Shown here piece after piece: positions 15,395 through 63,560 of a DNA stretch of 64,000 nt (positions within the stretch are counted from its first letter, which is position 1; every line of letters starts with the position of its first letter). Location of the stretch: contig OZ220705.1 of NCBI GenBank assembly GCA_965116515.1, positions 3,888,331 through 3,952,330 on the forward strand. Direction: 5' to 3'. Both the position numbers and the translations under genes were made by a program. Below the pieces are notes generated by a model. The model saw only the letters and a list, made by a program, of their open reading frames with translations, had not been told where the DNA came from and did not search any database. This DNA is from Alphaproteobacteria bacterium. GTDB lineage: Bacteria > Pseudomonadota > Alphaproteobacteria > SP197.

Positions 15395-15400
15395 TCCGTT

Positions 15401-18021: not shown

Positions 18022-18256
18022 ATGGCCAGAATCCTGATCAGGGTATCCGTGACCGGCCGGAATTGCATCAGCGCTTCATGGCGTGATCACCGAGGACGAT
18101 CGGGCGATATGGCGGACGACCGAGCCCGAAGCCGTCACCAATCGGAGCTGTCCCGACCTGCAGATCGACAGGTCGGTGTCGCCGGGCGACGAGGAATTCG
18201 GGATCGCGACGGATGGTCGTATCGGATACGCTCTGCCGGAAATTCGGGTGCATTGC

Positions 18257-19423
18257 ATGAAGATCGAACGCATCATCGCCCGTCCGCTCAAGCGGGGATC
18301 GCCTCTCGACCGGGGAACGTCGCCACGTGCGTCCATCCCGCCCGGGGGCGATGGCGGCAACACGCTGTCGCGTTACCGCGAGTTTTCCGGACGGGCCCGC
18401 GACCCCGGCGGCAGCGGCCCGCCGGCGCTGTGCCTGGCAATCGCCAGCGATGGCACCTGGGGCATGGGTATCACCGATTTCTCCGGGGCAGTCGTGCCCC
18501 TGATCAACGAGTACTTCGCTCCCATGATCGAAGGCGGCAATGCACTGGCGACCGAACGGTTGTGGGACCTCATGTTCCGTCATGCCAGCGTTCCCGGGGT
18601 GGGCGGGATTGTGAGCTACGCGATCAGCGCCATTGATCTCGCCTTGTGGGATCTCAAGGGAAAGCTCCTGCAGCGTCCGGTCTATGAACTGCTGGGCGGA
18701 CCTGCGCACGCGGAGACCTTCTGCTATGCCACCGGCCACGACGTTGCATGGATGCTCGAATCGGGCTTCGAGGCGGTCAAACTGCCATGCTTGTTAGGTG
18801 AGGCTCAGGGCATCGTGGCCCTGGAGAGGATCGAGGAGAAGGTGGCGCACGCCAGGGAGATGATCGGTCCCGAACGTGAACTGATGCTCGACTGCTGGGT
18901 GGCCGGAGATGTCGAGTTCATGGTAAGGCTTGGCGAACGGTTGCGGCCCTACGGCCTGAAGTGGCTCGAGGACTATCTCTACCCCGAGGACTTCGCCTCC
19001 TACGAGGAACTGCGCCGGCGTCTTCCCTGGCAGACACTGGCTACCGGCGAACGCTGGTTCACCCATCTTCCCTTCGGCGAGGCAGCGGCGCGCCGCACCG
19101 TCGACATTTTCCAGCCCGACGTCCGCTGGGTCGGAGGTGTGACGGCCTGTATCAAGATCGGTCACATCGCCGAAGGCGCAGGCCTCCAGGTCGCCCTGCA
19201 CGGCGGTGTCAACGACTCGTTCGGCCAGCACCTGTGCCACGCCATGCCCAGCAACATGTGGGGTGAACTCTACATTGACTCGGCTCCCGGCATCCCTCTG
19301 GAGGAAGGCTGGCGTCCAACACCGGGCATGGCCATCCCGAAAGACGGTCGCCTCGTTCCACCGGCCACGCCCGGTTTCGGCATCGAACTCACCCGCGACG
19401 AGCTTGAGGCCATGACCGACTGA
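18257..19423 (+). CDS. Enolase-superfamily dehydratase, L-rhamnonate dehydratase (RhmD)-like
   Basis: Shared blocks with RhmD as I recall it: SAIDLALWDLKGKLLQRPVYELLGG, FCYATG, LMLDCW, LKWLEDY, QPDVRWVGGVT, PGFGIELTRD. ATG at 18257. The listed ORF begins at 18083. Confidence 0.7.
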   Translation: MKIERIIARPLKRGSPLDRGTSPRASIPPGGDGGNTLSRYREFSGRARDPGGSGPPALCLAIASDGTWGMGITDFSGAVVPLINEYFAPMIEGGNALATERLWDLMFRHASVPGVGGIVSYAISAIDLALWDLKGKLLQRPVYELLGGPAHAETFCYATGHDVAWMLESGFEAVKLPCLLGEAQGIVALERIEEKVAHAREMIGPERELMLDCWVAGDVEFMVRLGERLRPYGLKWLEDYLYPEDFASYEELRRRLPWQTLATGERWFTHLPFGEAAARRTVDIFQPDVRWVGGVTACIKIGHIAEGAGLQVALHGGVNDSFGQHLCHAMPSNMWGELYIDSAPGIPLEEGWRPTPGMAIPKDGRLVPPATPGFGIELTRDELEAMTD

Positions 19424-19602
19424 TCACCCCCCTGCAATTGATTTTCTGCACGATCCGGGAAACCCCACTTGACCCGGACAGGGGAATCTCTAGCGTGACA
19501 TCGACGTGTTGGCGCAGTCGCCCGTCTGTCCTTCTTCAGGGCTTTGGGTCGTTTCAGCACCGTCGAACTGCTTTTGCTCAACCCTGTTTGGAGACTGAAC
19601 AC

Positions 19603-19833
19603 ATGGCCACCACCGCTGACCGCATCAGGCAGATCATCGCCGATAATCTCGACGTTGGCCGCGATCCCGACTTCGACGCGAAACTCGTTGACTCCGGCGT
19701 GTCCTCGGTAGACTGCATCGCGTTTTTCAAGATTGTGAACGACGAGTTCAGCCTGGGACTGGTCGCCGAGGAGTGCCGGCAATTCGAGACACTGAATCAA
19801 TTGGTTCAGCACATCGATCAGAAGGCGGCATAA
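19603..19833 (+). CDS. Stand-alone acyl/peptidyl carrier protein (77 aa) with an atypical phosphopantetheine-site motif
   Basis: Four-helix-bundle-sized ORF MATTADRIRQIIADNLDVGRDPDFDAKLVDSGVSSVDCIAFFKIVNDEFSLGL. Candidate attachment Ser within DSGVSSVD (19690..19713). GGAGAC RBS. Sits directly upstream of a PPTase and a PKS. Confidence 0.65.
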   Translation: MATTADRIRQIIADNLDVGRDPDFDAKLVDSGVSSVDCIAFFKIVNDEFSLGLVAEECRQFETLNQLVQHIDQKAA

Positions 19834-19853
19834 CAGCACATCTGCACTGACGA

Positions 19854-19889
19854 CTGACAGGATGTCGCACCTGGCCCGTCGCTGGGTCG
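19854..19889 (+). terminator. Candidate intrinsic terminator hairpin after the carrier-protein gene (GTCGCACC...GGTGCGAC with a nested CCGTCG/CGACGG stem). No U-tract.
   Basis: Inverted repeat read directly 21 nt after the stop codon. Confidence 0.3.
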
Positions 19890-20340
19890 ACGGTGCGACA
19901 GGATGCCCGGGCCAGGGTTCCCGACCGAACAACGGGCTCCTCGCCATGGATTCTTGAGGGCCGGCCGGCCTTGGCGCCTTCCGGACTTTCGCCTGCGGCC
20001 AACCGGCACACGTGCCGCAAAGGGGTCACGGAAAAGCCGAACCGGCGTCGGCCGGGCATCCGCATCCACTCTGTCAGCAGGTGGCGACATGGCCGCCACG
20101 CCCAAAGCTGCTGCCTGTCCAACTCGACGAGTAGCCAGCCGGCACCGGAACTTCGAGTCGAACGGTGCCCATGGCGTCCGGTTGTGCGCCGGAACGCTTC
20201 CAGCGTCCTGGTACAGTCCGTGCCGATCACCCGGGCGGGGCTATCGAGGACCCTGGTCGACGCCGAGAGACGGGCCCCATTTGCGGATCTGAATGCGGCC
20301 GGTAGAGTCCCCGGAGGCATGGCGACCAAGGACTCCGACC

Positions 20341-21045
20341 ATGACCCTGACGGAGAACACATGGTGGACTCACTGGCGCGAGGTGGATGGCACGATCGTT
20401 CTCCATGTCGATCTGGCGCCGGATGCCGGGCGCGAGGCGCGGGCGGTCTCGTTGCTCGACGACAGCGAGAAAGCGCGCGGCCTCCGCTTCCGGTCCGTTT
20501 GTGCCCGCCGCGAGTTCGTCCTTTGCCGCGCGGCGCTTCGCGTCAGCCTCGCCGAGCGCCTGGGCTGCTCTGGTGAACGGCTTTCGTTCGGCTTCCTGGA
20601 ACACGGCAAGCCCTACGCGAGGCTCGCCGACCGGTCCGTGGACATCGCGTTCAACGTCAGTCACAGCGGCGGGCACGGCCTGATCGCGATCACCGACAAG
20701 GCGAGTGTCGGTGTCGACGTGGAGGAACGTGCGCCTCAGCGCGATCTCGACGGCATCGGCAGCCTGGTGTACGGCCCCAGGGAGCAGCGGTTCCTGGGGA
20801 ACGCTTCGGATCGGGAGAAAGTGCAGATCTTCTATCGCCTGTGGAGCATGAAGGAAGCGTTGATCAAGGCACTCGGCACCGGGTTTTCCCTGAACCCGTC
20901 GGGATTCGAGGTTCCCGGACCGATGCTGCGGGGAGAACGGTCCGGCATCTTCCGCTTCCCGCACCTGCCGTCACAGGCGTGGCGGGTCCTGGACCTGGGG
21001 GAGTCCCGATTCGCCGCCGCGCTTGCCTACCGGCTGTCGTCATGA
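20341..21045 (+). CDS. 4'-phosphopantetheinyl transferase, Sfp/EntD type
   Basis: Motifs GKPY, FNVSHSGGHGLIAI, VGVDVEE and WSMKEALIKALGTG. ATG at 20341 with an AAGGA RBS. The listed ORF starts at 20293. Confidence 0.85.
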   Translation: MTLTENTWWTHWREVDGTIVLHVDLAPDAGREARAVSLLDDSEKARGLRFRSVCARREFVLCRAALRVSLAERLGCSGERLSFGFLEHGKPYARLADRSVDIAFNVSHSGGHGLIAITDKASVGVDVEERAPQRDLDGIGSLVYGPREQRFLGNASDREKVQIFYRLWSMKEALIKALGTGFSLNPSGFEVPGPMLRGERSGIFRFPHLPSQAWRVLDLGESRFAAALAYRLSS

Positions 21046-21198
21046 CCCGGATCGATACCGGCGACGAACCGCCGGACAGCGAGTCCCGGTGCTAACCGCC
21101 GTGGCCGGAGTCCGCCCTTGTCCCGATGCGGTCGTTCGCCCAGCCTGCCGCCGCACGGCTTGCGGCCTGCGCGATGGCACATTGCACCGACAGGAATC

Positions 21199-22950
21199 AT
21201 GAGCGCCGCCGAAACGCGAGGCATCCGCTTCCAGCCCGATGAGACGCCGGCTCCGGCGCTCTCGCTCGGCCTGGGACTGCAGATCGTCATTCTCTCACTG
21301 GCTGGCATCATCCTGATCCCGACGATCGTGATGCGGGCCGGCGGAGCAAGCGAGAGCTATCTCTCCTGGGCGGTGTTCGCAACGGTCGCGATCTGCGGCG
21401 CTACAACGATCCTGCACGCAATCCGGATCTGGCGAATCGGCACCGGCCACCTGGTCGTTATGGGTCCCACCGGGGTCTACATCGCCGTCTGCATTACCGC
21501 GGTTGCCGAGGGCGGGCCAGCGCTTATGGCGACCCTGGTTGTTGTCTCGTCCGTGCTTCCTCTCGTGCTGGCCGCGCGGATGCCGCTGTTCCAGCGGCTG
21601 CTGACACCGACGCTTTCGGCAACGGTCCTGATGTTGATCCCCGTGACGGTAATGCCTGCCGTGTTCGGTCTCCTGACCGCAGTACCGGACGGCACGTCCG
21701 TTCTGGCATCGGCGCTGAGCGCCCTTGCGGTACTCCTCGTCATCGTAGGCATCGCTCTGAAGGTGACGGGCGCGCCACGCTTGTGGGCGCCGATCGTCGG
21801 GGTGGTCGCAGGCTCCGTTGTCGCCGCCGCGTTCGGCCTCTACGACACGGGCCGCGTCATCGAGGCGCCGTGGATCGGTTTTCCAACGGGCGAGTGGGCG
21901 GGCTTCGATCTCGAATTCGGCCCGGCATTCTGGGCGCTTCTGCCGACCTTTCTGCTCGTTACCGTCATTGCCTCGGTCCGGACCATCAGCGGCGCCGTGG
22001 CCATTCAGCGGGTTTCGTGGCGCCGGCCGCGGGCGGTGGATTTCCGCGCGGTACAGGGCGCGATCACAGTCGACGGTCTGGGCAACCTGCTCACCGGTCT
22101 CGCCGGTACGGTGCCAAACGCGTCCACGACCGTCGGCGCATCCGTAACCGAGTTGACGGGTGTCGCCAGCCGCCACGTTGGTATCGCCACCGGCGCAATC
22201 CTTGTCGTAATAGCGTTTCTGCCGAAGGCGCTCGCCGTCGTGCTGGCGATACCGGGACCGGTGGTCGCCGCCTATCTCGGGGTGTTGCTGGCCATGATCT
22301 TCATTGTCGGAATGAGTGTCGCGATGCGCGACGGGATCGACTACCGCAAGGGCCTAATCATTGGCGTCTCCTTCTGGGTCGGTATCGGTTTCCAGTACGA
22401 CATGATCTATCCCGAACATGTTTCCGAGATCGCCGGTGGACTCCTGCGAAACGGGGTCATGACAGGAGGCGCCGCGGCCATCCTGATGACACTTTTCGTG
22501 GAATTGACGAAACCACGCCGCAGCCGTCTCGTGGTTGCGTTCGAGACCTCCTCGGTGCCGAAGATCAGGAGTTTCCTCGGCATCTTCGCCGACCGGAACG
22601 GGTGGGGCGCGGCGATGGCCGCGCGGCTCGACGCTGCCTGCGAGGAGACGCTTCTCACTCTTCTCCACCAGGACGACGGGTCAGACGTGGCGAATCCGGG
22701 CCGGCGTCTGCGTCTGGCGGTCCACAGGGAAGGCACCGGCGCGGTCGTCGAATTCGTCGTGGCCGCACAGGACGTCAACCTCCAGGATCGCCTCGCGCTG
22801 ATCGGCGACGAGCCGGGCGCAACGCCTGCGGAGCGGGAGGTGTCGCTGCGACTCTTGCGCGGGTTGGCATCCTCTGTGCATCACCAGCAGTATCACGGTG
22901 TCGACATCGTGACCGTTCGCGTTGCGGCGCCGATGTCCGGCGCCGATTGA
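21199..22950 (+). CDS. NCS2-family (nucleobase:cation symporter-2 / xanthine-uracil permease-like) transporter with a ~150-aa C-terminal cytoplasmic extension of unknown function
   Basis: TM1 motif PALSLGLGLQIVIL. NCS2 signature region TTVGASVTELTGVASRHVGIATGAILVVIAFLPK, which I compare with UraA ...TGVASRYVG.... The C-terminal soluble part (FETSSVPKIRSF...VEFVVAAQD...) is not recognisable with confidence. Confidence 0.7.
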   Translation: MSAAETRGIRFQPDETPAPALSLGLGLQIVILSLAGIILIPTIVMRAGGASESYLSWAVFATVAICGATTILHAIRIWRIGTGHLVVMGPTGVYIAVCITAVAEGGPALMATLVVVSSVLPLVLAARMPLFQRLLTPTLSATVLMLIPVTVMPAVFGLLTAVPDGTSVLASALSALAVLLVIVGIALKVTGAPRLWAPIVGVVAGSVVAAAFGLYDTGRVIEAPWIGFPTGEWAGFDLEFGPAFWALLPTFLLVTVIASVRTISGAVAIQRVSWRRPRAVDFRAVQGAITVDGLGNLLTGLAGTVPNASTTVGASVTELTGVASRHVGIATGAILVVIAFLPKALAVVLAIPGPVVAAYLGVLLAMIFIVGMSVAMRDGIDYRKGLIIGVSFWVGIGFQYDMIYPEHVSEIAGGLLRNGVMTGGAAAILMTLFVELTKPRRSRLVVAFETSSVPKIRSFLGIFADRNGWGAAMAARLDAACEETLLTLLHQDDGSDVANPGRRLRLAVHREGTGAVVEFVVAAQDVNLQDRLALIGDEPGATPAEREVSLRLLRGLASSVHHQQYHGVDIVTVRVAAPMSGAD

Positions 22951-50576: not shown

Positions 50577-51769
50577 GCCATGTGGTGAACTTCGGCTGCC
50601 GACTCAACACCCGGGAGGCGGCAATCATGTCTCGTCACCTGGAATCGGGCGGTGTGGAGAACACGATTGTCGTCAACACCTGCGCCGTGACGGCCGAGGC
50701 CGAGCGTCAGGCGCGCCAGATGGTGCGCCGGCTGCGCCGAGAGCATCCGTCGGCCACCATCGTCGCCACCGGCTGCGCCAGCGAGATCGACCACCAGGCG
50801 TGGACCGCCATGCCGGAGATCGATCGTGTCGTGGCCAACGGCCTCAAGACCCGCCGCGAGACGTGGACCACGGCGCCCGCCCCATCGCGGACCGTACCCC
50901 CGGCAGCGAAGGCCCGGACACCCGTCGAGGTGCAGAACGGGTGTGATCATCATTGCACGTTCTGCATCATCCCCCGCGGTCGCGGCGCCTCGAGAAGCCG
51001 TCCGGCTGAGGATGTCATCAACGATGTTCGAGACATCGTCTCATCCGGGTGCAACGAGGTGGTGCTGACCGGCGTCGACATCACGGCATGGGGCCAGGAT
51101 TTTCCGGACCGGCCCCGCCTCGGTAACCTTGTCCGCGCCATCCTCGCCGGCGTACCCGAACTGCCGCGACTGAGGTTGACCAGCCTCGATGTCGCAGAGG
51201 TCGACGGGACACTCCTCGATGCGATCGCGTGCGAGGAGCGCCTCATGCCCCACCTTCACCTGTCACTTCAGGCGGGTGATCCGATGATTCTCAAGCGAAT
51301 GAGACGCCGGCACACACCGCTTGACGCTGTCCGCTTTTGCCGGAGCGTGCGCCAGCTGCGTCCCGACATCGTGTTCGGCGCCGATCTGATTGCCGGGTTT
51401 CCCACCGAATCGGAAGGCATGTTTGCCAATACCCTGGCCCACGTGGACGATTGTGGCCTGACATGGCTCCATGTCTTTCCCTATTCCGAGCGGCCCGGAA
51501 CACCCGCAGCAAGGATGCCGTCCCTTCCGCGCCAGGTGAGAAAGGAGCGTGCGGCGAGGCTGCGGCAGGCCGGCGTGGCCGCTGCCGTCGCCTGTCTTGA
51601 CTCTCTTGTTGGCTCCACGTCTGCCGTTCTCGTCGAATCCCCGGGCACAGGCCGCACGGAACACTATGCCCCGGTGGCGACGCCCGTGGAACTCGCAACG
51701 GGCAGCATCCATGCACTCGTCCTCACCGGCCGCGACGGTAACAGGCTTCTCACGGGACCCGGCCCGTGA
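50573..51769 (+). CDS. mtaB: Radical-SAM methylthiotransferase, MiaB-like (tRNA t6A methylthiotransferase MtaB-like)
   Basis: N-terminal MTTase Cys residues. Radical SAM CDHHCTFCIIP. 4-nt ATGA overlap with dapF. Confidence 0.8.
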   Translation: MSHVVNFGCRLNTREAAIMSRHLESGGVENTIVVNTCAVTAEAERQARQMVRRLRREHPSATIVATGCASEIDHQAWTAMPEIDRVVANGLKTRRETWTTAPAPSRTVPPAAKARTPVEVQNGCDHHCTFCIIPRGRGASRSRPAEDVINDVRDIVSSGCNEVVLTGVDITAWGQDFPDRPRLGNLVRAILAGVPELPRLRLTSLDVAEVDGTLLDAIACEERLMPHLHLSLQAGDPMILKRMRRRHTPLDAVRFCRSVRQLRPDIVFGADLIAGFPTESEGMFANTLAHVDDCGLTWLHVFPYSERPGTPAARMPSLPRQVRKERAARLRQAGVAAAVACLDSLVGSTSAVLVESPGTGRTEHYAPVATPVELATGSIHALVLTGRDGNRLLTGPGP

Positions 51770-52689
51770 GCAGAGACGGTTGGTTCGCCCGGCTGCGTTC
51801 CGGTCTCACGCGCTCTTCGGACAGGCTGAAGGAATCGATCGGCGCGATCGTCAACGCCAGAAAGCTCGACAGTGCAGCTCTCGGGGACCTCGAGGACGTG
51901 CTGATCGAGGGCGATATCGGAGTGACCACGGCGGCCACCCTGGTGGCGGAACTCTCGCGCCAGCGGTTCAACCGGCAGGTGACGGATGAGGAAGTGCGCG
52001 GCGATCTTGCCGAACACATCGCCCGCATTCTCGAGCCGCTCGCCGTGCCCCTGTGTCCTGATCCCGCCAATCGTCCCCATGTCGTCCTGGTGATGGGAGT
52101 CAACGGGACAGGCAAGACCACGACGATCGGCAAACTCGCGCGGCAGCACCGCGAAAACGGTCTCGCCGTGGTGCTGGCCGCCGGCGATACCTTTCGGGCG
52201 GCAGCCATCGAACAGCTCGGGATCTGGGGCCGCAGGACCGGCGCCATCGTGGTGAGCGGCAAGGAGGGAGGCGATCCCGCAGCCCTTGCCTACACCGCCT
52301 ACCAGACGGCGCAATCGCACAATGCGGACCTCCTTCTCGTCGACACCGCCGGCCGTCTCCACAACAAGCGCCATTTGATGGACGAACTGGTCAAGATCCG
52401 ACGGGTACTGGGCAAGCTGGATGCCAGTGCGCCACACGACCGGGTTCTCGTCGTCGATGCGACCACCGGCCAGAACGCCCACGCCCAAGTCGAGACCTTC
52501 CGCGATGCGTGCGACATCACCGGACTGATCGTCACCAAGCTCGATGGATCGGCCCGGGGCGGGGTCGTCGTCGGTCTGGGCGAACGATTCCAGCTTCCCC
52601 TGCACGCCGTCGGCGTTGGCGAGGGGACCGATGATCTCAAGCCTTTCGAGGCGCGCGAATACGCCCGCTCTCTCATGGGGCTTTCCTGA
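51766..52689 (+). CDS. ftsY: Signal recognition particle receptor FtsY
   Basis: VVLVMGVNGTGKTTTIGKLA ... DTAGRLH ... TKLDGSARGG. 4-nt overlap with mtaB. Confidence 0.9.
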   Translation: MSRDGWFARLRSGLTRSSDRLKESIGAIVNARKLDSAALGDLEDVLIEGDIGVTTAATLVAELSRQRFNRQVTDEEVRGDLAEHIARILEPLAVPLCPDPANRPHVVLVMGVNGTGKTTTIGKLARQHRENGLAVVLAAGDTFRAAAIEQLGIWGRRTGAIVVSGKEGGDPAALAYTAYQTAQSHNADLLLVDTAGRLHNKRHLMDELVKIRRVLGKLDASAPHDRVLVVDATTGQNAHAQVETFRDACDITGLIVTKLDGSARGGVVVGLGERFQLPLHAVGVGEGTDDLKPFEAREYARSLMGLS

Positions 52690-53424: not shown

Positions 53425-53916
53425 CTACGCCCGCGTCGATGCGCGCGGTCGAGCGGTGGCTTGCCTCAGTTCGGGGTCCGGAAAGCCGGGCTTGCTTGCT
53501 TCCCAGTCGGCCATTCTGCCATCGACGATGCGGAACAGCGGATGGAGCCGCCGCGTGGCCGTTTCATTCCATTGCCGCCACGCGGGCGAGCGGCGCGCCA
53601 GCTTCGCCATGAGGTGACGCCACTCGAAGTCGACCTGGCCCCGGGATACGTCAATCACGACTGTCTCTGCGCAGGCCTCGATCTTGGCGCCGTCGAACCG
53701 GTATCCCCGTGACACCGCTTCGACATGGACGGCCCACAGATAACTCCCGATCACCGCCACCGGTGCGGTCTCTTTGCGGAACCGGATCAACTGGGGATGA
53801 TGGCGGTATCCGCTGGTCCTTCCGGCAAGAACGGCCTGGGCAAGAAGACCCTCACGCCACAGGGCCACCAGACCGCTCGCATCAAGATGGCAAGGATGCA
53901 GACTCCACAAGCGCAT
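53425..53916 (-). CDS. Pyrimidine-dimer DNA glycosylase / endonuclease V-like (Pyr_excise family) protein
   Basis: MRLWSLHPCHLDASGLVALWREGLLAQAVL, an N-terminus characteristic of this family as I recall it. Confidence 0.55.
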   Translation of the reverse strand: MRLWSLHPCHLDASGLVALWREGLLAQAVLAGRTSGYRHHPQLIRFRKETAPVAVIGSYLWAVHVEAVSRGYRFDGAKIEACAETVVIDVSRGQVDFEWRHLMAKLARRSPAWRQWNETATRRLHPLFRIVDGRMADWEASKPGFPDPELRQATARPRASTRA

Positions 53917-56072: not shown

Positions 56073-56211
56073 CGTGAACCCCTCGCCAGACCGCCGGCAA
56101 ATCATGGTCCGGTCATGGGGTGTGTCAAGAAGGACCCGACCGCCTTGCAGGAGGGCGCGCTCAGGCGTTAACTGTGAGAGATTGGTTGAGTCGGAACAGC
56201 GGGAGCAATCC

Positions 56212-57021
56212 ATGACCTTGCCTGCCGAAGACAATGACAGCCAGGGTGTGACTGTCCACCGGGAGGACGGGGTGCTGCTCGTCACCCTTGATCGCCCTCC
56301 GGCCAACGCCATCGACACTGCGACCAGCCGCAGGATGGGAGAGGTGTTCCTCGGATTTCGTGACGATCCTGACCTGAGGGTGGCCATCCTGACCGGTGGC
56401 GGCGAGAAGTTCTTCTCGGCCGGCTGGGACCTCAAGGCCGCTTCGGCCGAACTCGAGGTGCTCGAGGAGGATTACGGACCTGGCGGGTTTGGCGGCATGC
56501 AGGACCTGCTCGATCTCAACAAACCCATCATCAGCGCGGTCAACGGCATCTGTTGCGGTGGCGGACTCGAAGTCGCCCTTGACGCCGACATCCTGATTGC
56601 AGCCGAACACGCCACCTTCGCGCTCCCCGAAATCACCGTCGGCACCTATGCACCAGCGGCCTGCATCGCCTTGCCCAAGCGCATTCCCTATCACATCGCC
56701 ATGGAACTCCTGCTCACCGGAAGGTGGTTCGATGCCGCCGAGGCACACCGCTGGGGTCTGGTCAATCGCGTGGTGCCATCAGCGGACCTCATGGACGAAG
56801 CATGGAAAATGGCACGGCTCCTTGCCGACGGACCACCCCTCGTCCAGGCGACCACCAAGGAAATCGTGCGCGATGCAGAGGACAAGAAATTCCAGGACGC
56901 TCTCAACAAGGTCAACGCGCGGCAGTACCGCACAGTCGAGATCATGATTCCCAGCGAGGACCGCAAGGAGGGCCCCCGCGCCTTCCAGGAGAAGCGCAAG
57001 CCGGTCTGGAAGGGGCACTGA
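56212..57021 (+). CDS. Enoyl-CoA hydratase/isomerase (crotonase) family, carnitinyl-CoA dehydratase CaiD-like
   Basis: VTLDRPPANAIDTATSRRMGEVFLGFRDDPDLRVAILTGGGEKFFSAGWDLKAA and ...EKRKPVWKGH closely track E. coli CaiD as I remember it. GGGAG RBS. Confidence 0.65.
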   Translation: MTLPAEDNDSQGVTVHREDGVLLVTLDRPPANAIDTATSRRMGEVFLGFRDDPDLRVAILTGGGEKFFSAGWDLKAASAELEVLEEDYGPGGFGGMQDLLDLNKPIISAVNGICCGGGLEVALDADILIAAEHATFALPEITVGTYAPAACIALPKRIPYHIAMELLLTGRWFDAAEAHRWGLVNRVVPSADLMDEAWKMARLLADGPPLVQATTKEIVRDAEDKKFQDALNKVNARQYRTVEIMIPSEDRKEGPRAFQEKRKPVWKGH

Positions 57022-57045
57022 CCGGGCTCCGGTCCAAAAGGAGGT

Positions 57046-59136
57046 GTGACGAGCGTGGTGCGCGACCCGCGATACGACATTCTCTTCGAGCCGGTACGCA
57101 TCGGTCCCGTCATTGCGCGCAACCGGTTCTACCAGGTCCCCCATTGCAACGGCGCCGGTATCCAGTTTCCCCACGGACAGGCCGCCATGCGCGGCATGAA
57201 GGCCGAGGGCGGTTGGGCGGTGGTGAACACCGAGTGGTGTTCAATCCACCCTTCGATGGATATTCCGGCGGCTCAGGGCACGAGGCTGTGGAGCCGGGAG
57301 GACGTGCGCGTTCACGCCATGATGGTGGAGGCCGTCCATCGCCACGGCGCACTGGCCGGGTGCGAACTCGCCCACGCAGGCCTCACATCGCACAATTCCT
57401 ACAGCCGGCTGACGGCCATGGGGCCGTCCGCCCGGCCGATGCCACCCCAGGATTTTCCCGGTCATGGCCGGGCCATGACACGCGACGACATTCGCAATAT
57501 CCGGCGCTGGCACCGCGAGGGTGTCAGACGTGCCCTGGAGGCAGGATTCGACCTTGTCTACGTCTACGCCAGCCATGGCATCACGGTCTTCACGGATTTC
57601 CTGTCACCGCGGATCAACCGGCGAACGGACGAGTACGGAGGATGTTTCGAGAATCGTCTGCGCCTGTTGCGCGAGACCCTAGAGGACGTCATGGAAGAGG
57701 CTCAGGGAAGGTGTGCCGTGGCCCTGCGCTTCGGCGTCGACGAAAAGGATGGACCGGTTCACCTGGGAGACGAGGAGTGCCGGGCTGTCGTCGAGAGCCT
57801 GGCCGAAGTTCCTGATCTCTGGGATGTGAATATTGGCGGGCCGAACGACATGCTGACCTCCCGTTTCCGCAAGGAGGGCTGGCAGGAATCGTCCATGGCC
57901 TTTGTCAAGGCACTCACCTCCAGACCTGTCGTTGGTGTCGGCCGCTTCACCAGCCCGGACACAATGGCGGCCATGGTCAGACGTGGCGTTGTCGATTTCA
58001 TCGGCGCGGCACGACCGTCGATCGCCGATCCATTCCTGCCCCGCAAGATCGAGGAAGGCCGCATCGACGACATTCGCGAGTGTATCGGCTGCAACGTGTG
58101 CCTGGCCTCCGACATGATGTCCGTGCCCATACGCTGCACCCAGAATCCCACCATGTCGGAGGAGTGGCGCCGTGGATGGCACCCCGAGCGGCTGCCCAGG
58201 CGGGGCAGCAGCGCACGCGTCCTGGTGGTTGGCGCCGGTCCGGCCGGCCTGGAGGCGGCACGGACTGCCGGAGAGCGGGGCTACGAGGTGACCCTGGCCG
58301 AAGCCGGTCCGGAACCCGGCGGTCATCTCAACCGGATGGCACGCCTGCCGGGCCTTGAGGAGTGGATCCGGGTGCGGGACTGGCGCATCGGCCAGATCGA
58401 CCGGCTGAACAATGTCGAGGTGTACCGGAACAGCAGGCTGAACGCATCCGACGTGACCGGCTGGGGCTTCGGCCACGTCATCGTGGCCACCGGATCGCTC
58501 TGGCGACGTGACGGAGTGGGACGCACCAACATCGATCCCGTCCAGGGTCACGAATGCGGTCATGTCCTGTCCCCCGATGATGTTCCCGGTGACGCCCGGC
58601 TCCAGTCGCCTGTGGTGATCTTCGACGACGACCCCTATGTCATTGGCGGTGCCCTGGCAGAGAGACTGGCCTGTGATGGACATCGGGTGCTTCTCGTGGG
58701 CACCGGTGCCATGGTTTCGCCCTGGACCCGCTTCGCCACCGACCAGGCGGACATTCATCGTCGCCTGGTCTCGTGTGGTGTCGACGTGCTCCTCAACCAC
58801 AATCTCGTGGCCATCCGGGACGGCTCGGTGAGCGTTGCCGGCATGTTCGGCGAGCCTCCCTCCATCCGGGAGGCGGCGAGCGTCGTTCTGGTCACGATGC
58901 GCCACCCGCAGACCGAGCTGGCCGACGACCTCGGCAGGGCCATGGAGAACGGCGCGGCCGGCACCATCCAAAATGTCGTTGCCGTGGGGGATTGCCACGC
59001 ACCGGGGCTGATTTCGGAGGCCGTCTTCAGTGGACATCTGGCGGCGCGCTCGCTTGACGAAACCGACCCCGGGGACCTTCCTTTCCGGGTCGAACAGGTG
59101 CCTGCGCACTTCCAGTTCACCGGGAACGGGAGGTGA
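57046..59136 (+). CDS. Trimethylamine/dimethylamine dehydrogenase-family flavoprotein (FMN TIM-barrel + 4Fe-4S + ADP-binding domain; DgcA/StcD-like amine N-demethylase candidate)
   Basis: Collinear with TMADH: DPRYDILFEPVRIGPVIARNRFYQVPHCNGAG (Cys at the 6-S-cysteinyl-FMN position). CIGCNVC...C cluster. VLVVGAGPAGLEAA. True start may be the GTG at 57055, which has better spacing from the AAAGGAGG RBS. Confidence 0.8.
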   Translation: MTSVVRDPRYDILFEPVRIGPVIARNRFYQVPHCNGAGIQFPHGQAAMRGMKAEGGWAVVNTEWCSIHPSMDIPAAQGTRLWSREDVRVHAMMVEAVHRHGALAGCELAHAGLTSHNSYSRLTAMGPSARPMPPQDFPGHGRAMTRDDIRNIRRWHREGVRRALEAGFDLVYVYASHGITVFTDFLSPRINRRTDEYGGCFENRLRLLRETLEDVMEEAQGRCAVALRFGVDEKDGPVHLGDEECRAVVESLAEVPDLWDVNIGGPNDMLTSRFRKEGWQESSMAFVKALTSRPVVGVGRFTSPDTMAAMVRRGVVDFIGAARPSIADPFLPRKIEEGRIDDIRECIGCNVCLASDMMSVPIRCTQNPTMSEEWRRGWHPERLPRRGSSARVLVVGAGPAGLEAARTAGERGYEVTLAEAGPEPGGHLNRMARLPGLEEWIRVRDWRIGQIDRLNNVEVYRNSRLNASDVTGWGFGHVIVATGSLWRRDGVGRTNIDPVQGHECGHVLSPDDVPGDARLQSPVVIFDDDPYVIGGALAERLACDGHRVLLVGTGAMVSPWTRFATDQADIHRRLVSCGVDVLLNHNLVAIRDGSVSVAGMFGEPPSIREAASVVLVTMRHPQTELADDLGRAMENGAAGTIQNVVAVGDCHAPGLISEAVFSGHLAARSLDETDPGDLPFRVEQVPAHFQFTGNGR

Positions 59137-59139
59137 CGT

Positions 59140-59949
59140 GTGCGTGAGGTGACTGATCAGGACCGAGCCGTGTTCGAGGAAGACGGCGTCGTGCTGCTGC
59201 ACGGGGCCTTCGATGAGGCATGGATCACCTTTCTCCAAGAGGCCGTTGACGAGGCCATGGCCAACCCGGGGCCCCATGCCATGGAGTATGCCAGGGAAGG
59301 TCGCTTCTTCGGCGATGTTGAACTCGCCCATCGCCTGCCGGCGTTCATGCGCTTCGTCTGCGAGTCGCCTGCCGCCGGCTACGCCGGTCTCATCATGGGC
59401 TCCTCGAAGGTCAACTACTTTGACGATCATCTCCTGGTCAAGGAGCCAGGAACCGCCAAGCCCTCTCCGTGGCATCAGGACCAGCCCTACTGGGCCGTCG
59501 CAGGGCGCCAGGTCTGTTCCCTGTGGCTGCCGCTCGATCCCGTCAGCCGCGACGTTGCCGTCGAGTTCGTCAGGGGCTCCCACACTTGGCAGGCTTTCAA
59601 TCCCTATCACTTCGAGGACGGACGCCTCTATGAAGGGGCCGGGCTCCCTCCCCTGCCGGACATTGAATCGCAACGCGAACGCTACGAAATCCTTCGCTTT
59701 CCCATGGAGCCCGGCGACGCGCTCATGTTTCACGGCATGATCGTTCACGGCGCCCCCGGCAACACCGGGCATCATCGCCGCCGGGCGCTCTCGACCCGGT
59801 GGACCGGAGACGATGCGCGTTTTCACCGGCGTCCAGGAGAGATTTCCGTGCCTACTGTTCTGCCGGACCTTGCCGACGGCGCATGCCTTGATTGCGGCCG
59901 ATTCCCCGTCGTCTGGAGACGCCATCTGCCACGCCCGGACGCATCCTGA
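59140..59949 (+). CDS. Phytanoyl-CoA dioxygenase (PhyH)-family Fe(II)/2-oxoglutarate-dependent oxygenase
   Basis: WHQDQPYW (HxD), FHGMIVHGAPGN (distal His) and RALSTRW. GTG start 7 nt after a GGGAGG RBS. Confidence 0.7.
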   Translation: MREVTDQDRAVFEEDGVVLLHGAFDEAWITFLQEAVDEAMANPGPHAMEYAREGRFFGDVELAHRLPAFMRFVCESPAAGYAGLIMGSSKVNYFDDHLLVKEPGTAKPSPWHQDQPYWAVAGRQVCSLWLPLDPVSRDVAVEFVRGSHTWQAFNPYHFEDGRLYEGAGLPPLPDIESQRERYEILRFPMEPGDALMFHGMIVHGAPGNTGHHRRRALSTRWTGDDARFHRRPGEISVPTVLPDLADGACLDCGRFPVVWRRHLPRPDAS

Positions 59950-60218
59950 ACGAGAGCTCGCCCGTGAATGACCGAGATTGTGTCACCGACACCCCTTGTG
60001 CACCATGGCCCCAAAGAGGGATGGAGAAGGGCTGCACGTCGTGAATGTCAGCGACGACGGTGTTCAGGGGACACCCTGCAAGGAGAAGAGCCGACCGGTT
60101 ATCGTGGAGCGCGCGACCGCCGCGAACCTTTCGGCCTTCGCGTCATCGCGAATCCGGCAAGGCCTGGTCCCCGGATCGGGAAACCCGCTCCCGCGCCTTT
60201 CGTGAAGGCAAGCGGCGC

Positions 60219-61190
60219 ATGAGCATGGCAAGCGAAAATACAGAAACCCTTCGCCACCTCTATCCGCCGATTGAGCCCTTTGGATCCGGCCGCCTGGCGG
60301 TCGGGGACGGCCACGAGCTTCATTTCGAGGAGTGCGGCAACCCGCGGGGAAAACCTGCTGTTTTCCTTCATGGCGGGCCGGGCGGGGGAATCAGGCCGCA
60401 CTACCGGCAGTACTTCGATCCCGAGGCCTGGCGGGTCGTCCTCTTTGACCAGCGGGGCTGTGGCCGCTCCACGCCATGGGCCTCGCTCGAGTCCAACACC
60501 ACCTGGCACCTGGTTGACGACATGGAGGCCTTGCGCAGGCACCTCGGAATCTCCTCCTGGCTTGTCTTCGGCGGGTCCTGGGGAAGTGCGCTGGCGCTTG
60601 CCTACGCCCAGACCCATCCAGAGCGTGTCAGTGAACTCGTTCTCTACGGCATCTTCACCTTGCGCCGTTCGGAACTCCTTTGGCTCTACCAGGACGGGGC
60701 AAGCCACATCTTCCCCGAGGCATGGGAGGACTTCGTTACCCCCGTTCCCGAAACCGGAAGGGGCGACATGATGGGATCCTACCTGGAGCTCCTGATGTCC
60801 GGCGATTCCGATGTGGAACGCGTGGCGGCGCGGGCATGGAGTGTCTGGGAGGGGTCGATCCTTTCGCTCTATCCTGACCGGCGACGCGAGAAGAGGTTCG
60901 CCAGCGACGACTTCGCCAGGGCATTTGCCCGGATCGAATGCCACTACTTCGTCAATCGCGGGTTCTTCCCCCGTGACGGCCATCTGATCAGCAACATCGA
61001 CCGGTGCCGTCACATTCCCGCGGTCATCGTCCAGGGACGATACGACATCTGTACGCCCGCAAGAACGGCGTGGGACCTTCACCGCGCCTGGCCCGAAGCC
61101 GACTTTCGCCTGGTGCCTGATACCGGACACACGGCCCTCGAACCGGGCAACGTTCACGAACTCGTGGGCGCCACGGACGGCTTCCGGTGA
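60219..61190 (+). CDS. pip: Proline iminopeptidase (prolyl aminopeptidase)
   Basis: LYPPIEPFGSGRLAVGDGHELHFEECGNPRGKPAVFLHGGPGGG ... FGGSWGS. Confidence 0.85.
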   Translation: MSMASENTETLRHLYPPIEPFGSGRLAVGDGHELHFEECGNPRGKPAVFLHGGPGGGIRPHYRQYFDPEAWRVVLFDQRGCGRSTPWASLESNTTWHLVDDMEALRRHLGISSWLVFGGSWGSALALAYAQTHPERVSELVLYGIFTLRRSELLWLYQDGASHIFPEAWEDFVTPVPETGRGDMMGSYLELLMSGDSDVERVAARAWSVWEGSILSLYPDRRREKRFASDDFARAFARIECHYFVNRGFFPRDGHLISNIDRCRHIPAVIVQGRYDICTPARTAWDLHRAWPEADFRLVPDTGHTALEPGNVHELVGATDGFR

Positions 61191-61978
61191 TGGATCTGGG
61201 ACTTGGCGGCAAGACGGTCCTGATCACCGGCGGATCGCGCGGCATCGGCTATGCCACGGCACGTGTCTTTGCATCGGAAGGAACGGACCTCCACCTGGCC
61301 TCGAGGACAAGAGAGGATCTGGAACGCGCCAGGAATGCCATCCGGAGCGAGTTTCCGGTGGCCGTCGACATTCACGTCGCGGATCTCTCGAGCGGGGAGC
61401 AGATACTCGCGGTGGCGCGCGCCTGTGCCGACGCCGACATTCTGGTGAACAATGCCGGCGCCATTCCCCTCGGCACGTTACTCGATGTTGACGACGAAAC
61501 CTGGCGTGCCGCCTGGGATCTCAAGCTCTTCGGCTACATCACCATGATGCGCGCCATGTACGCTGAAATGAAGGCGCGCGGCCGCGGGGTCATCGTCAAC
61601 AACATCGGCACGGCGGGCGACCAGAAGCCGTCCGGCTACGCCGCAGGGGTGACGGCCAATGGTGCGCTTGTCACACTGACCCGCGCGCTCGGTGGAACAA
61701 GCCTCGACGATGGAATCCGGGTGCTCGGAATCAGTCCAGGCGACATGGAAAACGACCGCGGCATCATGGCTCTAAAGCATCATGCCCTGAAGAAATTCGG
61801 TGATAGCGACAGGTGGCGTGAACTGATATCCGGCATGCCTGGCGGGTCACTTCCGGTCTCCGCGGACATGGCCGATGCCATCGTCTTTCTCGCCAGCCCC
61901 CGGGCGCGTTTCATCAGTGGGGTCGTACTGACCATCGACGGCGGCATGTGCGCACGCCAGGCGGTCACAGGCGGCTGA
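61187..61978 (+). CDS. Short-chain dehydrogenase/reductase (SDR) family protein with atypical YxxxV in place of YxxxK
   Basis: GKTVLITGGSRGIGYA ... NNAG ... SGYAAGVTANGAL. ATGA overlap with pip. Confidence 0.7.
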   Translation: MMDLGLGGKTVLITGGSRGIGYATARVFASEGTDLHLASRTREDLERARNAIRSEFPVAVDIHVADLSSGEQILAVARACADADILVNNAGAIPLGTLLDVDDETWRAAWDLKLFGYITMMRAMYAEMKARGRGVIVNNIGTAGDQKPSGYAAGVTANGALVTLTRALGGTSLDDGIRVLGISPGDMENDRGIMALKHHALKKFGDSDRWRELISGMPGGSLPVSADMADAIVFLASPRARFISGVVLTIDGGMCARQAVTGG

Positions 61979-61984: not shown

Positions 61985-63560
61985 CATCGGCACCGGACTG
62001 CCAGACCTTCTGCCAGGTGATGAATTCGGGAACTACATCGTTGACTGAACGGTCGGAATCCGGGGTTGTGCATGTGCAGGGGTACCGCCAACCACCTCCG
62101 CACCAGACGCCCGTTGGAGGGGCCACTGCATTGAGCGAACTTGGCCGCACATCGACAGGTTGTCTACCGCCTGCTTCCGCGCAAACGGGTGATCTGGCGA
62201 TGGCTGTAGAGGACGCTGGAGGACCAGCGCCGGCTCTACAACGCCGCCCTCGAAGAGCGGATCGACTGCCACCGGAAGACAGGCAAGGGTTTCTCCTACT
62301 TCGACCAGTGCAAGAGCCTGACGGTCTGCCGGCAGGCGCTCGGCGACATGAGTGCGGTGTCGGTCATGATCCAGCGCGGCACGCTCAGGCGACTGGATGA
62401 AGCGTTCAAGGGATTCTTGCGCAGGGGCGGCGGCTTGCCCCGGTTCCAGGGTCGCCATCACTGGAACAGCATCTCCATTGTCTCCGGCGTGAAGGTGGAG
62501 GCTGACCGCATCCGCATTCCGTCGTTCGGCTGGCTCACCATCCGCCGCCGGGCAGGTAACCCCCACGTGGACGGCACTGCGAAGTCGGCCGTGTTGAAGC
62601 GCGTCGAGGGCCGCTGGTATGTGGTTGTCTGCTACGCCATTTCTCTGCCGGAGCCGGTGGACGACGGTCGTGTCGTCGGAGTGGACATGAACGCCGGACA
62701 GGTTGCCGCCAGCGACGGCGTGATCCACCACGCCCCGGACATGGCGAAGCTGGAGGCGCGCAAGCGCCGCTACCAGCGCAAGGTTTCGCGCTGCAAGCGT
62801 GGATCGAAGCGCCGGGCGCTGGCGAAGACGGCGCGGCGGATCGCCTGCAAGCGCCATGACTGGCGGCACAAGACCAGCCGGACGATCGCGGACGCTGCGC
62901 ACACCGTCGTCGTCGAGGACCTGAAGCCCAGGGCGATGACGCGGAGCGCGAAGGGGACGGCCGGGGAACCCGGACGAAACGTGACGCAGAAGGCGGGTCT
63001 GAACCGCGTCATCCTCGATACGGGTTGGTCGGGCCTGCGCCGGATGCTTTCCTGGAAGGCGGGACGGCTGATCGCTGCCGATCCTCGCCACACCAGCCAG
63101 ACCTGCGCGGCCTGCGGTGTCGTGGACGCCCGCTCCCGGCGCACGCAGGCGGCCTTCATGTGTGTCTCTTGCGGACATGCGGACAACGCGGACATCAATG
63201 CGAGCCGCGAGATACGGCGCCGGGGACTGGCGCAGCTGCACGGGGAGGGCGTTGCCGTCAGGCACCCGGTGAACCGTGAAAACATACCGAGGCTGGCGGC
63301 ATGACCCGTTCAGCCATCGATGTAAGTTCCATGAATTCGGAATGCCAGACCCGGTGGCGTACGAAGTTGCCTTCTTGTGGACGACAGGCACTCGCTCATC
63401 AAGCAGTCCTTCAAGGAGAGCCGTGCCTTGTGGACCAGAACGGCGATTAACCCGAAGTGCCAGCCGCGCTCAGGCACAACATTTTGAATGTATTGACGTT
63501 CGAGACAACTGTGTATGTCTCTACTGGGGGTCGGTTACCTTCGGTCTGACCGACAGTCAA
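61985..63560 (+). mobile_element. IS1341-like (IS605 family, tnpB-only) insertion-sequence remnant, including probable subterminal hairpin regions
   Basis: tnpB homology spans 62141..63304. The flanks carry inverted repeats (e.g. CCTCCG...CGTTGGAGG at about 62080..62120 and GTCGGT...ACCGAC near 63520..63550). Confidence 0.45.
62141..63304 (+). pseudogene. tnpB: IS605-family tnpB (OrfB, RNA-guided nuclease family) with an in-frame premature TAG at 62207..62209. Probable pseudogene. No tnpA present.
   Basis: Frame reads (TTG)AAHRQVVYRLLPRKRVIWRWL*RTLEDQRRLYNAALEERIDCHRKTGKGFSYFDQCKSL...RLDEAFKGFLRRGGGLPRFQG... It ends with a Zn-finger CAACGVVDARSRRTQAAFMCVSCGHADNADINASREI. The only long intact ORF is 62348..63304. 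Confidence 0.7.

Follow-up and report, generated by a model that had tools for sequence, protein, structure and literature searches.

A recurrent, rearranged gene cluster with a possible role in the catabolism of cationic-nitrogen acids as coenzyme A thioesters in an alphaproteobacterium

This analysis deals with a stretch of 64,000 nucleotides from an alphaproteobacterium (contig OZ220705.1; the whole stretch is called the window hereafter) and with a block of six genes near its right-hand end. Five plus-strand genes encode a CaiD-like enoyl-CoA hydratase (ECH), an iron–sulfur flavoprotein of the trimethylamine dehydrogenase/histamine dehydrogenase (TMADH/HADH) family, a PhyH-family oxygenase, a prolyl aminopeptidase (PIP) and a short-chain dehydrogenase/reductase (SDR). 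A sixth, divergent gene encodes an NDP-forming acyl-CoA synthetase (ACS). The clustering of these six genes is more than chance, as the genes recur together, rearranged, in other lineages. We tentatively read the block, with a confidence that stops a little short of even, as a reduced form of a catabolic gene set that recurs, moves horizontally and acts on the CoA thioester of a short-chain acid with a cationic nitrogen. Its most likely substrates are compounds such as gamma-butyrobetaine, crotonobetaine or carnitine, or relatives of these with fewer methyl groups, with an amino or guanidino group, or in amide or lactam linkage. Each component comes from a known family and the chemistry resembles that of the bco and cai pathways; no dgc, stc, cai or bco operon matches the gene content of the window.

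Families were assigned by Pfam and NCBIfam profile searches together with a listing of the open reading frames (ORFs) of the window. These searches bear out the positions and families that a preliminary description of the same DNA had given for the five plus-strand genes and the divergent ACS. It had also called the combination no textbook pathway, and we found no operon of this content in an annotated plasmid collection or in the searchable literature, where a query for co-mention of the enzyme families returned no paper. Loci with an established function, such as a dgc or stc operon, had been named as what would overturn its novelty; none that matches was found.

Recurrence of the gene set

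The grouping recurs when the block is compared with other genomes, the check that the preliminary description had proposed (Table 1). The most telling case is L178/L179: each of the six genes has an orthologue there, all of them inside ~13 kb, and gene order and strands differ from those of the window. Overall, at least five lineages keep the modules together within 13-25 kb, although the genes have been rearranged. The recurrent core consists of ACS and PhyH, usually with ECH and often with SDR and a LysR gene, in about eight lineages. The suspected link to the divergent ACS is supported, since this gene co-occurs with other genes of the set in every related lineage with enough flanking sequence. 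Its orthologues (59-71% identity) adjoin PhyH and/or ECH in L009, L170-L172 and L177-L180. Orthologues of PhyH (62-75%) stand directly upstream of ACS or divergent from it in L009, L170, L172, L177, L178 and L180. The two genes adjoin in L170, L172 and L178 (with a 2-nt gap in L178), and a LysR gene stands between PhyH and the divergent ACS in L009 and L180.

Table 1. Loci related to the block. Figures are percent identities to the window proteins; '-' means no entry.
Locus	ACS	ECH	Flavoprotein	PhyH	PIP	SDR	Other genes or remarks
L001 (near-identical contig)	98	99	98	98	99	split ORF	same block
L002/L007 (L007 is an Alphaproteobacteria metagenome-assembled genome)	84-85	95-96	88	88-90	85	90	same block
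L003/L008 and L180 (one contig, gammaproteobacterial metagenome-assembled genome)	62	85	70	68	-	-	amidase, SBP_bac_5, LysR
L009 (Ectothiorhodospiraceae metagenome-assembled genome)	59	84	70	68	-	-	LysR, SBP_bac_5, LLM-class oxidoreductase
L178/L179	63	78	70	63	70	74	SBP_bac_5, diaminopimelate (DAP)-decarboxylase-like, LysR
L170/L171	60	77	amidase instead	65	-	70	decarboxylase, LysR
L172	62	-	amidase instead	65	-	-	LysR
L177	71	87 (fragment)	elsewhere on contig (P0068, 57%)	75 (fragment)			caprolactamase-alpha-like gene

The partner that would cleave a C-N bond is exchangeable: some lineages carry a NylA-like amidase where others carry the flavoprotein. The closest solved relative of this amidase is the 6-aminohexanoate-cyclic-dimer hydrolase (266 bits), and the neighbour of ACS in L177 is caprolactamase-alpha-like (456 bits). 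These exchanges with an amidase (6-aminohexanoate-dimer-hydrolase-like) or a caprolactamase suggest that all of the enzymes free one kind of omega-amino or ammonio acid from amine, amide and lactam conjugates. The LysR protein is 77-93% identical across L009, L170, L172, L178 and L180, and its strong conservation across different variants of the cluster argues for one shared effector or substrate class. Other accessory proteins are conserved as well. The substrate-binding proteins (SBPs) of L009, L178 and L180 are mutually orthologous (67-74%), and the amidase (73-76%) and the decarboxylase (84%) are alike among loci. A SBP_bac_5 ABC transporter downstream of the block in the window lineage (L001) was considered as the conserved transporter of the cluster and was rejected, with 22% identity to the L009 protein.

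Horizontal spread is suggested by a comparison with one housekeeping protein. The FtsY of the L178/L179 genome is only 45% identical to that of the window, and the cluster proteins are far better conserved. All relatives of the cluster are metagenome-assembled genomes. Plasmids in PLSDB gave no close orthologues (ACS ≤41%, PhyH ≤47%, flavoprotein ≤51%) and no cultured annotated example was found; plasmid loci of Shinella and Paracoccaceae were set aside as distant analogues only.

Some neighbours give mild hints of N-methylated substrates, as they belong to one-carbon or osmolyte metabolism. A GCV_T-family gene lies between a ClpP-like gene and ACS in L002 (5404-6585, minus strand), with the C-terminal domain of trimethylamine N-oxide (TMAO) demethylase and dimethylsulfoniopropionate (DMSP) demethylase as its best models (Tdm/DmdA-like). 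A GFA gene adjoins the 65% flavoprotein homologue in L006, OpuAC occurs in L177, and a DddP-like M24 gene is found near the L180 cluster.

The hydratase and the acyl-CoA synthetase

The top NCBIfam model of the hydratase is that of crotonobetainyl-CoA hydratase (CaiD), at 293.8 bits and ~79 bits above the next model; the same model gives 310.5 bits for the Sinorhizobium meliloti caiD product and 327.4 bits for the Ruegeria pomeroyi enzyme. This agrees with the CaiD-like crotonase named in the preliminary description. The score lies below the equivalog cut-off of NF002936 (500 bits). Since the S. meliloti and R. pomeroyi enzymes, both from gamma-butyrobetaine clusters, also fall below it, this cut-off defines the enterobacterial enzyme only. 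Against the S. meliloti caiD product the window protein has 66.9% identity, and against its R. pomeroyi counterpart 68.9%; both of these come from carnitine/gamma-butyrobetaine loci. The catalytic glutamate pair is present (Glu120 in GGGLE, Glu140 in LPE). Hydratases of the window type form a clade of their own (76-96% identity inside, 60-70% to the bco type), at a distance from the bco type that is no larger than the spread within the latter.

The ACS keeps the phosphohistidine loop T-H257-SGALAGD. Its closest solved structures are an ADP-forming 4-hydroxybutyrate-CoA ligase (8wzu, 229 bits) and the DMSP lyase DddX (7cm9, 205 bits). The protein is roughly equidistant from the two, and the similarity is low (205-229 bits over ~700 residues). 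In the alignment, Trp391 of DddX is replaced by alanine and Glu432 by histidine. Other characterised members of the superfamily use onium acids, DddX among them (PMC8163506), and a second, distant DddX-like clade also cleaves DMSP (PMC13543886). The residue test is weak as applied to the ACS, because this characterised DddX-like clade likewise lacks Trp391 and Glu432. The Roseobacter DddX-like enzyme of that study may itself fall in the bcoAB-type clade.

The flavoprotein

Against solved structures, the flavoprotein scores highest with the histamine dehydrogenases of Nocardioides simplex (3k30, 695 bits) and Rhizobium sp. (6de6, 684 bits), followed by 6l6j (function unnamed, 623 bits), TMADH (1djn, 535 bits) and, far behind, the 2,4-dienoyl-CoA reductase FadH (1ps9, 132 bits). 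The similarity is full-length and spans the three domains (residues 9-683 with 3k30, 6-684 with 1djn). The preliminary description had singled out the cysteine of YQVPHCNGAG and the 4Fe-4S cysteines as conserved, and alignment with 3k30 upholds both. The motif covers residues 29-38, and its Cys34, the predicted site of a 6-S-cysteinyl-FMN, aligns with the FMN-linking Cys35 of HADH; the cluster motif C346-x2-C349-x2-C352-x11-C364 aligns with the cluster cysteines of 3k30. A Y-x-Y-x-x-H-G motif, an aspartate aligned with HADH Asp270 and an ADP-type GxGxxG motif are also shared with HADH and TMADH. One homologue at 68% identity (P0013) has alanine for the FMN-linking cysteine (YQVPHANGS; all others have cysteine) and glycine for the glutamate preceding Trp64.

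The substrate pocket is remodelled. Trp64 stands for HADH Gln65, a position that is Tyr60 in TMADH numbering; HADH Glu79 becomes Gly78; the position of Trp267 in HADH and Trp264 in TMADH is deleted (one residue); and Asp356, which is asparagine in most of the subfamily, occupies the position of HADH Asp358 and TMADH Trp355. The pocket matches neither characterised set of residues (Tyr60/Trp264/Trp355 in TMADH; Gln65/Glu79/Trp267/Asp358 in HADH). By its sequence the protein is a member of the TMADH/HADH family that is neither TMADH nor HADH in its substrate pocket; it is closest to the histamine dehydrogenases and falls in an uncharacterised subfamily. In an alignment of 125 homologues, the signature NTEWCS, GG-PxDM and CLAS[N/D] defines this subfamily down to ~58% identity, and more distant homologues (53-57%) retain the HADH-like Glu/Trp/Asp pattern. 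Genomic context changes with identity too. Among 80 species-representative genomes with a relative, ECH lies alongside the flavoprotein gene only at ≥70% identity, and neighbours at ≤67% are unrelated.

By established flavoenzyme chemistry, enzymes of the TMADH type cannot attack quaternary ammonium groups, since these have no lone pair. Therefore carnitine- or gamma-butyrobetaine-CoA cannot be the direct substrate of the flavoprotein. What it would act on instead is an amine that is primary, secondary or tertiary, be it the amine precursor, an intermediate that has lost some of its methyl groups or an aminoacyl-CoA. The proposal of the preliminary description that the block acts on carnitine or gamma-butyrobetaine-CoA derivatives is thus retained for the general substrate class and dropped for this enzyme.

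Two side observations concern relatives of the flavoprotein gene. An LLM-class oxidoreductase (F420/methylene-H4MPT-reductase-like) follows it directly in L003 (12170-13171, minus strand) and L009 (3758-4891, minus strand); it is 85% identical between these two gammaproteobacterial metagenome-assembled genomes and has no counterpart in the window. Tandem trios of TMADH/HADH-like paralogues (45-53% to the window protein) occur in L027, L044, L066, L067 and L085, from Rhodobacteraceae and related bacteria.

The oxygenase, the peptidase and the SDR

The PhyH protein carries the iron triad His112-x-Asp114...His203 and an arginine-rich segment (213-221). Its sole close solved relative is MysH (9c9n, 9pze; 123 bits, 1e-34), and the next match reaches 33 bits (2.7e-07). 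MysH has been proposed to hydroxylate the carbon alpha to a nitrogen, after which C-N cleavage releases glyoxylate (PMC10666671).

By sequence, the peptidase is a genuine prolyl aminopeptidase. It scores 418 bits with the Serratia enzyme (1qtr) and 392 bits with that of Xanthomonas (1azw), and has the nucleophile motif G-G-S120-W-G. A longer ORF starts at 60045 with an arginine-rich, non-homologous N-terminus; the gene call in L001 starts at the equivalent of 60219. The gene is found in three lineages only, two of them closely related, and its 70% orthologue lies inside the rearranged L178/L179 cluster, where in L178 it adjoins a NikA/Dpp-like SBP gene. It was not seen in L003/L180, L009 or L170-L172.

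In the SDR, the lysine of the catalytic YxxxK motif is valine (Y151-A-A-G-V155), both in the window and in three orthologues (L002 13879-14667, L178 12135-12923, L170 2325-3107). All four proteins nonetheless score above the PRK06125 subfamily cut-off. SDR orthologues (70-74%) adjoin the DAP-decarboxylase-like gene in L170/L171 and L178/L179. The SDR gene, whole in the window, is broken into ORFs of 153 and 109 residues on the 99%-identical contig L001 (14136-14923), either by a frameshift or through faulty assembly.

Proposed pathway and its weight

The proposed route comprises five steps. In step 1, the acid precursor would be freed by C-N or amide cleavage, here by the histamine-dehydrogenase-like flavoprotein oxidising an amine C-N bond; the electrons would leave FMN by way of the 4Fe-4S cluster and reach an acceptor outside the enzyme, for example electron-transfer flavoprotein (ETF). 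The prolyl aminopeptidase may also contribute, perhaps by trimming a prolyl conjugate; elsewhere, the NylA-like amidase or the caprolactamase-like enzyme would take this part. In step 2, the ACS would form the acyl-CoA via the phosphohistidine; its family is established, and its substrate is presumed. In step 3, PhyH would hydroxylate or desaturate the acyl-CoA in place of the bco acyl-CoA dehydrogenase, or alternatively hydroxylate the carbon next to the nitrogen, which would amount to an N-dealkylation as in MysH. Step 4 is the best supported: the CaiD-like hydratase would interconvert a 4-ammonio-enoyl-CoA and the 3-hydroxyacyl-CoA. In step 5, the SDR would oxidise the 3-hydroxyl and a housekeeping thiolase would finish the degradation.

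Within this model, unmethylated amino or guanidino acids of C4-C6, or lactams and amides of these, are a possibility that we rate below even; an N-methylated gamma-butyrobetaine-like substrate is a somewhat weaker candidate, and a peptide- or opine-like conjugate would be a minority case. No specific substrate deserves more than a low probability. We also consider it unlikely that the cluster embodies an O2-dependent variant of beta-oxidation for cationic short acids, in which PhyH replaces the acyl-CoA dehydrogenase and a new HADH/TMADH-like subfamily acts on the aminoacyl-CoA or on an amine precursor.

Several points weigh against a catabolic gene set of this kind. Beyond the family assignments, we infer every step. 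Identity between the ACS of the window and the bco-type (BcoAB) synthetases is no higher than 25-29%. PhyH homologues at 60-68% identity number in the thousands, and one of three contexts sampled is unrelated (in L173, EamA and a short old yellow enzyme (OYE)). The proposed role of the SDR as a 3-hydroxyacyl-CoA dehydrogenase is uncertain because the YxxxK lysine is absent, and a prolyl aminopeptidase has no evident place in such a pathway. The 269-nt gap ahead of the peptidase gene may divide the block into two transcription units. L172 has no ECH, so that the hydratase is not obligatory. The cluster holds no genes for acyl-CoA dehydrogenase, carnitine dehydrogenase, the beta-keto acid cleavage enzyme (BKACE), thiolase or ETF. 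The window, moreover, has no homologue of the conserved LysR, decarboxylase or amidase and no orthologue of the SBP_bac_5 protein, and its cluster is a reduced version. A search of the window for homologues of LysR, the decarboxylase, the amidase, the LLM oxidoreductase, GcvT, carnitine dehydrogenase, BKACE, acyl-CoA dehydrogenase and GFA found none at E < 0.01.

Alternative explanations

The block could be an N-demethylation operon, in which the flavoprotein takes the part of DgcA or StcD, with an N-methyl amino acid (N-methylproline, a stachydrine-derived or a dimethylglycine-like compound) or an N-methyl peptide as its substrate, and the peptidase supplies or removes proline. We regard this as improbable. 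The TMADH-family fold with its covalent-FMN cysteine and iron–sulfur cluster agrees with it, as do the prolyl aminopeptidase in the block and in L178 and the formaldehyde/C1 genes near relatives (GCV_T in L002; GFA by the 65% homologue in L006). However, no feature links the flavoprotein specifically to DgcA or StcD, the likeness drawn in the preliminary description, and it stands nearer to the histamine dehydrogenases than to TMADH (695 vs 535 bits). The aromatic bowl of TMADH is absent (Trp64; Trp264 equivalent deleted; Trp355 equivalent Asp/Asn), and neither dgcB nor etf nor a gene for a Rieske stachydrine demethylase is present in the window. The peptidase is missing from most related clusters, and the conserved partners ACS, ECH and PhyH indicate CoA-ester chemistry, which dgc and stc do not use. 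The suggestion of N-methylated proline or peptide substrates is weakened accordingly, because the flavoprotein is swappable for an amidase, the peptidase is confined to three lineages, two of them close, and the core is ACS, PhyH and ECH. Lower still is the chance of a DddX-type onium lyase. Here, the ACS would ligate CoA to a beta-onium propionate (DMSP, beta-alanine betaine), dimethyl sulfide or trimethylamine (TMA) would be eliminated to give acryloyl-CoA, ECH would hydrate the latter and the flavoprotein would oxidise the released methylamine. The match of the ACS to DddX, the activity of the second DddX-like clade and the DddP-like M24 gene near the L180 cluster speak for such a scheme. 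Yet the ACS is just as similar to the 4-hydroxybutyrate-CoA ligase, and the proposed cation-pi residue (Trp391) and base (Glu432) of DddX are both replaced. ECH is by a wide margin of the CaiD type, which handles a C4 onium substrate; the flavoprotein lacks the TMA-binding bowl; and PhyH, the SDR and the amidase would be left without a role.

There may also be no single pathway at all, the block being made of independent modules (ECH with the flavoprotein, PhyH with ACS, the peptidase with the SDR) that travel together on mobile DNA and have no common substrate. In rearranged copies, ECH and the flavoprotein gene remain neighbours, as do PhyH and ACS; there are lineages without the flavoprotein, without ECH, without the SDR and without the peptidase; several copies contain or adjoin transposase or TnpB genes; and the long gap precedes the peptidase gene. 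We nevertheless give this explanation little probability: co-occurrence over 13-25 kb persists through rearrangement in at least five lineages, the cluster proteins are 63-85% identical between hosts when FtsY is 45% identical, and one highly conserved LysR accompanies different variants. The least probable of the explanations, and a very remote one, is that the flavoprotein resembles FadH in function and reduces 2,4-dienoyl-CoA or enoates. The block would then serve as an auxiliary beta-oxidation operon for some uncommon fatty acid, unsaturated or branched, and PhyH would be its alpha-hydroxylase, as in the breakdown of phytanoyl-CoA. The domain architecture is the same (Oxidored_FMN, Fe-S, Pyr_redox_2), the best NCBIfam model of the flavoprotein is a FadH/OYE-family oxidoreductase, and ACS, ECH and PhyH are all CoA-ester families. 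But the score with that model is far under its cut-off (323 vs 793 bits), and FadH itself (1ps9) reaches 132 bits against 535-695 for the amine dehydrogenases. Covalent 6-S-cysteinyl-FMN is characteristic of the amine dehydrogenases and is not known from FadH; the FMN-linking cysteine of HADH has its aligned counterpart in Cys34. ECH, finally, is specifically CaiD-like.

Layout and surroundings of the block

All six genes are intact in the window (Table 2), whose G+C content is ~64% throughout. Short gaps or 4-nt overlaps had been described between the plus-strand genes, and most are as described: 24 nt separate ECH from the flavoprotein and 3 nt the flavoprotein from PhyH, and the peptidase and SDR genes overlap by 4 nt. 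The exception is the 269 nt between PhyH and the peptidase. The first of these gaps grows to 33 nt if the flavoprotein starts at 57055, the start called on the 99%-identical contig; the database copy P0001 has 693 residues, with a start three codons later than that of the 696-residue version, for which a look-up by exact identity gave no match.

Table 2. Features of the block and its right-hand boundary, in window coordinates.
Feature	Position	Strand	Remarks
NDP-forming acyl-CoA synthetase (ACS), 717 aa	53919-56072	-	Pfam CoA_binding_2, Succ_CoA_lig and ATP-grasp_5; divergent from the five plus-strand genes
Sigma-70-like promoter match TTGACA-16-CATGAT	56101-56128	-	10/12 matches; in the 139-nt ACS/ECH intergenic region; points to ACS
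CaiD-like enoyl-CoA hydratase (ECH), 269 aa	56212-57021	+	Pfam ECH_1, 219 bits
TMADH/histamine-dehydrogenase-family Fe-S flavoprotein, 696 aa	57046-59136	+	Pfam Oxidored_FMN, OYE-like_second_a-b and Pyr_redox_2
PhyH-family Fe(II)/2-oxoglutarate oxygenase, 269 aa	59140-59949	+	Pfam PhyH, 106.7 bits (cut-off 22)
PhyH/peptidase spacer, 269 nt, non-coding	59950-60218	no strand	lineage-specific
Prolyl aminopeptidase (PIP), 323 aa	60219-61190	+	TIGR01249, 415 bits (cut-off 260)
SDR oxidoreductase, 263 aa	61187-61978	+	PRK06125, 329 bits (cut-off 261)
IS200/IS605-type TnpB gene, seemingly disrupted	62130-63304	+	guided_TnpB, 166.6 bits; right-hand boundary, outside the pathway

Only the window and L001 have the spacer; in L002, the 88% relative, the gap measures 7 nt. 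It has no repeat copy elsewhere, no Rfam match and no excess RNA structure (z = 0.12). Over 53.5-62.5 kb, the site facing ACS is the sole sigma-70-like match. It is weak evidence, because one match was found and 1.1 are expected by chance, and the terminator and promoter scan as a whole stays at chance level. Rfam and transfer RNA scans of the entire window gave no match.

To the left of the block lie housekeeping genes (ffh, dapF, a radical-SAM methylthiotransferase gene, ftsY) and a ClpP-like gene; to the right lie the broken TnpB gene, a Fic gene and an ABC transporter. Compared with the 98%-identical copy in L001 (395 residues), the TnpB gene has a 1-nt insertion near 62143 and a TAG near 62207; an ORF of 318 residues is left, and only model positions 76-389 are covered. 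Where L002 has its GCV_T gene, the window has a small pyrimidine-dimer-glycosylase-like ORF (53425-53916, minus strand). The ftsY gene lies within 0.2-1.3 kb of the cluster both in the window (51766-52689, plus strand) and in L178 (177-1157, minus strand); with proteins that are 45% identical, this proximity may be a coincidence or a shared insertion neighbourhood. In L180, the region beside the ACS-amidase pair (14700-21397) holds the DddP-like M24 gene (305 bits, cut-off 600), a class IV aminotransferase gene and an MR_MLE and DUF1611 pair.

Significance

Onium and amino acids of the kind of carnitine and gamma-butyrobetaine abound as osmolytes and nitrogen sources, and methylamines derive from them. 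The aerobic routes known for them depend on either an acyl-CoA dehydrogenase or a Rieske oxygenase. A further route would be added by a conserved mobile cluster in which a CaiD-type hydratase is paired with a 2-oxoglutarate oxygenase and an iron–sulfur flavoprotein amine dehydrogenase. Such a cluster would also lend a first functional context to the large MysH-like PhyH subfamily with its thousands of homologues, to the uncharacterised branch of the TMADH/HADH family and to a separate clade of NDP-forming ACS. Were the O2-dependent variant true, the PhyH and HADH/TMADH families would gain an undescribed substrate class. The impact would be modest should the cluster merely give a few uncultured proteobacteria a variant route for degrading a minor metabolite.

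Comparison with known systems

In the E. coli cai operon, the CaiD-type hydratase chemistry is shared, and the window has no homologues of CaiA, CaiB, CaiC, CaiE or CaiT. The dgc and stc systems employ a TMADH-superfamily flavoprotein whose substrates are small N-alkyl amino acids. The window encodes neither DgcB nor Etf nor a Rieske demethylase. None of the partner genes of DgcA and StcD (dgcB, etfAB, the Rieske stachydrine demethylase gene) stands near the flavoprotein gene, a comparison made at the level of neighbouring genes.

With HADH and TMADH themselves, the window flavoprotein shares the full-length alignment, the FMN cysteine and the four cluster cysteines. It differs in the pocket residues, and its closest relatives have the gene linked to a crotonase gene. 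The ACS shares its superfamily, its domain set and the phosphohistidine loop with DddX, the DddX-like lyases and the archaeal ADP-forming 3-hydroxypropionate- and 4-hydroxybutyrate-CoA ligases; low similarity and the non-conserved Trp391 and Glu432 separate it from DddX. The region of the HxD...H triad aligns between MysH and the window PhyH, and the chemistry proposed for MysH suits an amine-catabolic cluster. MysH is, however, a cyanobacterial enzyme that serves the biosynthesis of mycosporine-like amino acids in mys clusters, whereas the window PhyH is linked to ACS and ECH.

Another close counterpart is the bco cluster (bcoC-bcoAB-bcoD/caiD) of S. meliloti, which serves the aerobic conversion of gamma-butyrobetaine to carnitine by way of CoA esters. 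The BcoAB protein of S. meliloti converts gamma-butyrobetaine, ATP and CoA to gamma-butyrobetainyl-CoA (bioRxiv 10.1101/2021.01.25.428109). In S. meliloti, the annotated order is GlxA, BKACE, carnitine 3-dehydrogenase, acyl-CoA dehydrogenase, an unlisted split ACS and caiD, and the set also occurs on the R. pomeroyi megaplasmid. The split ACS (L167 5921-7983, S. meliloti Ak57, CP090106.1) is of the bcoAB type, lies between the acyl-CoA dehydrogenase gene and caiD as ORFs of 480 and 228 residues and is absent from the gene table of CP090106.1; it is probably a frameshift or pseudogene in the assembly.

When 80 metagenome loci (L087-L166) were fetched with the window ECH, 71 were found to hold the ECH cluster. 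An NDP-forming ACS is present in 63 of the 80, directly upstream of ECH in the loci inspected, and in 37 of the 80 an acyl-CoA dehydrogenase precedes the ACS-ECH pair, often with a GlxA-type regulator and a carnitine dehydrogenase. This triad of acyl-CoA dehydrogenase, NDP-forming ACS and CaiD-like ECH is very common in marine and rhizobial loci (L087-L166, L167, L168). The window lacks it, having no acyl-CoA dehydrogenase and BcoAB-type ACS as neighbours of its hydratase; nor does its cluster contain a carnitine dehydrogenase, BKACE or GlxA regulator, and its ACS is the distant relative of BcoAB described above. What the two kinds of cluster share is an NDP-forming ACS, a CaiD-type hydratase and an oxidising enzyme beside the ACS. 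Clusters of the window type have PhyH, an HADH-like flavoprotein or amidase, an SDR and LysR instead of the missing bco genes, and the oxidising enzyme that flanks the ACS, an acyl-CoA dehydrogenase in the classical bco cluster, is PhyH in them.

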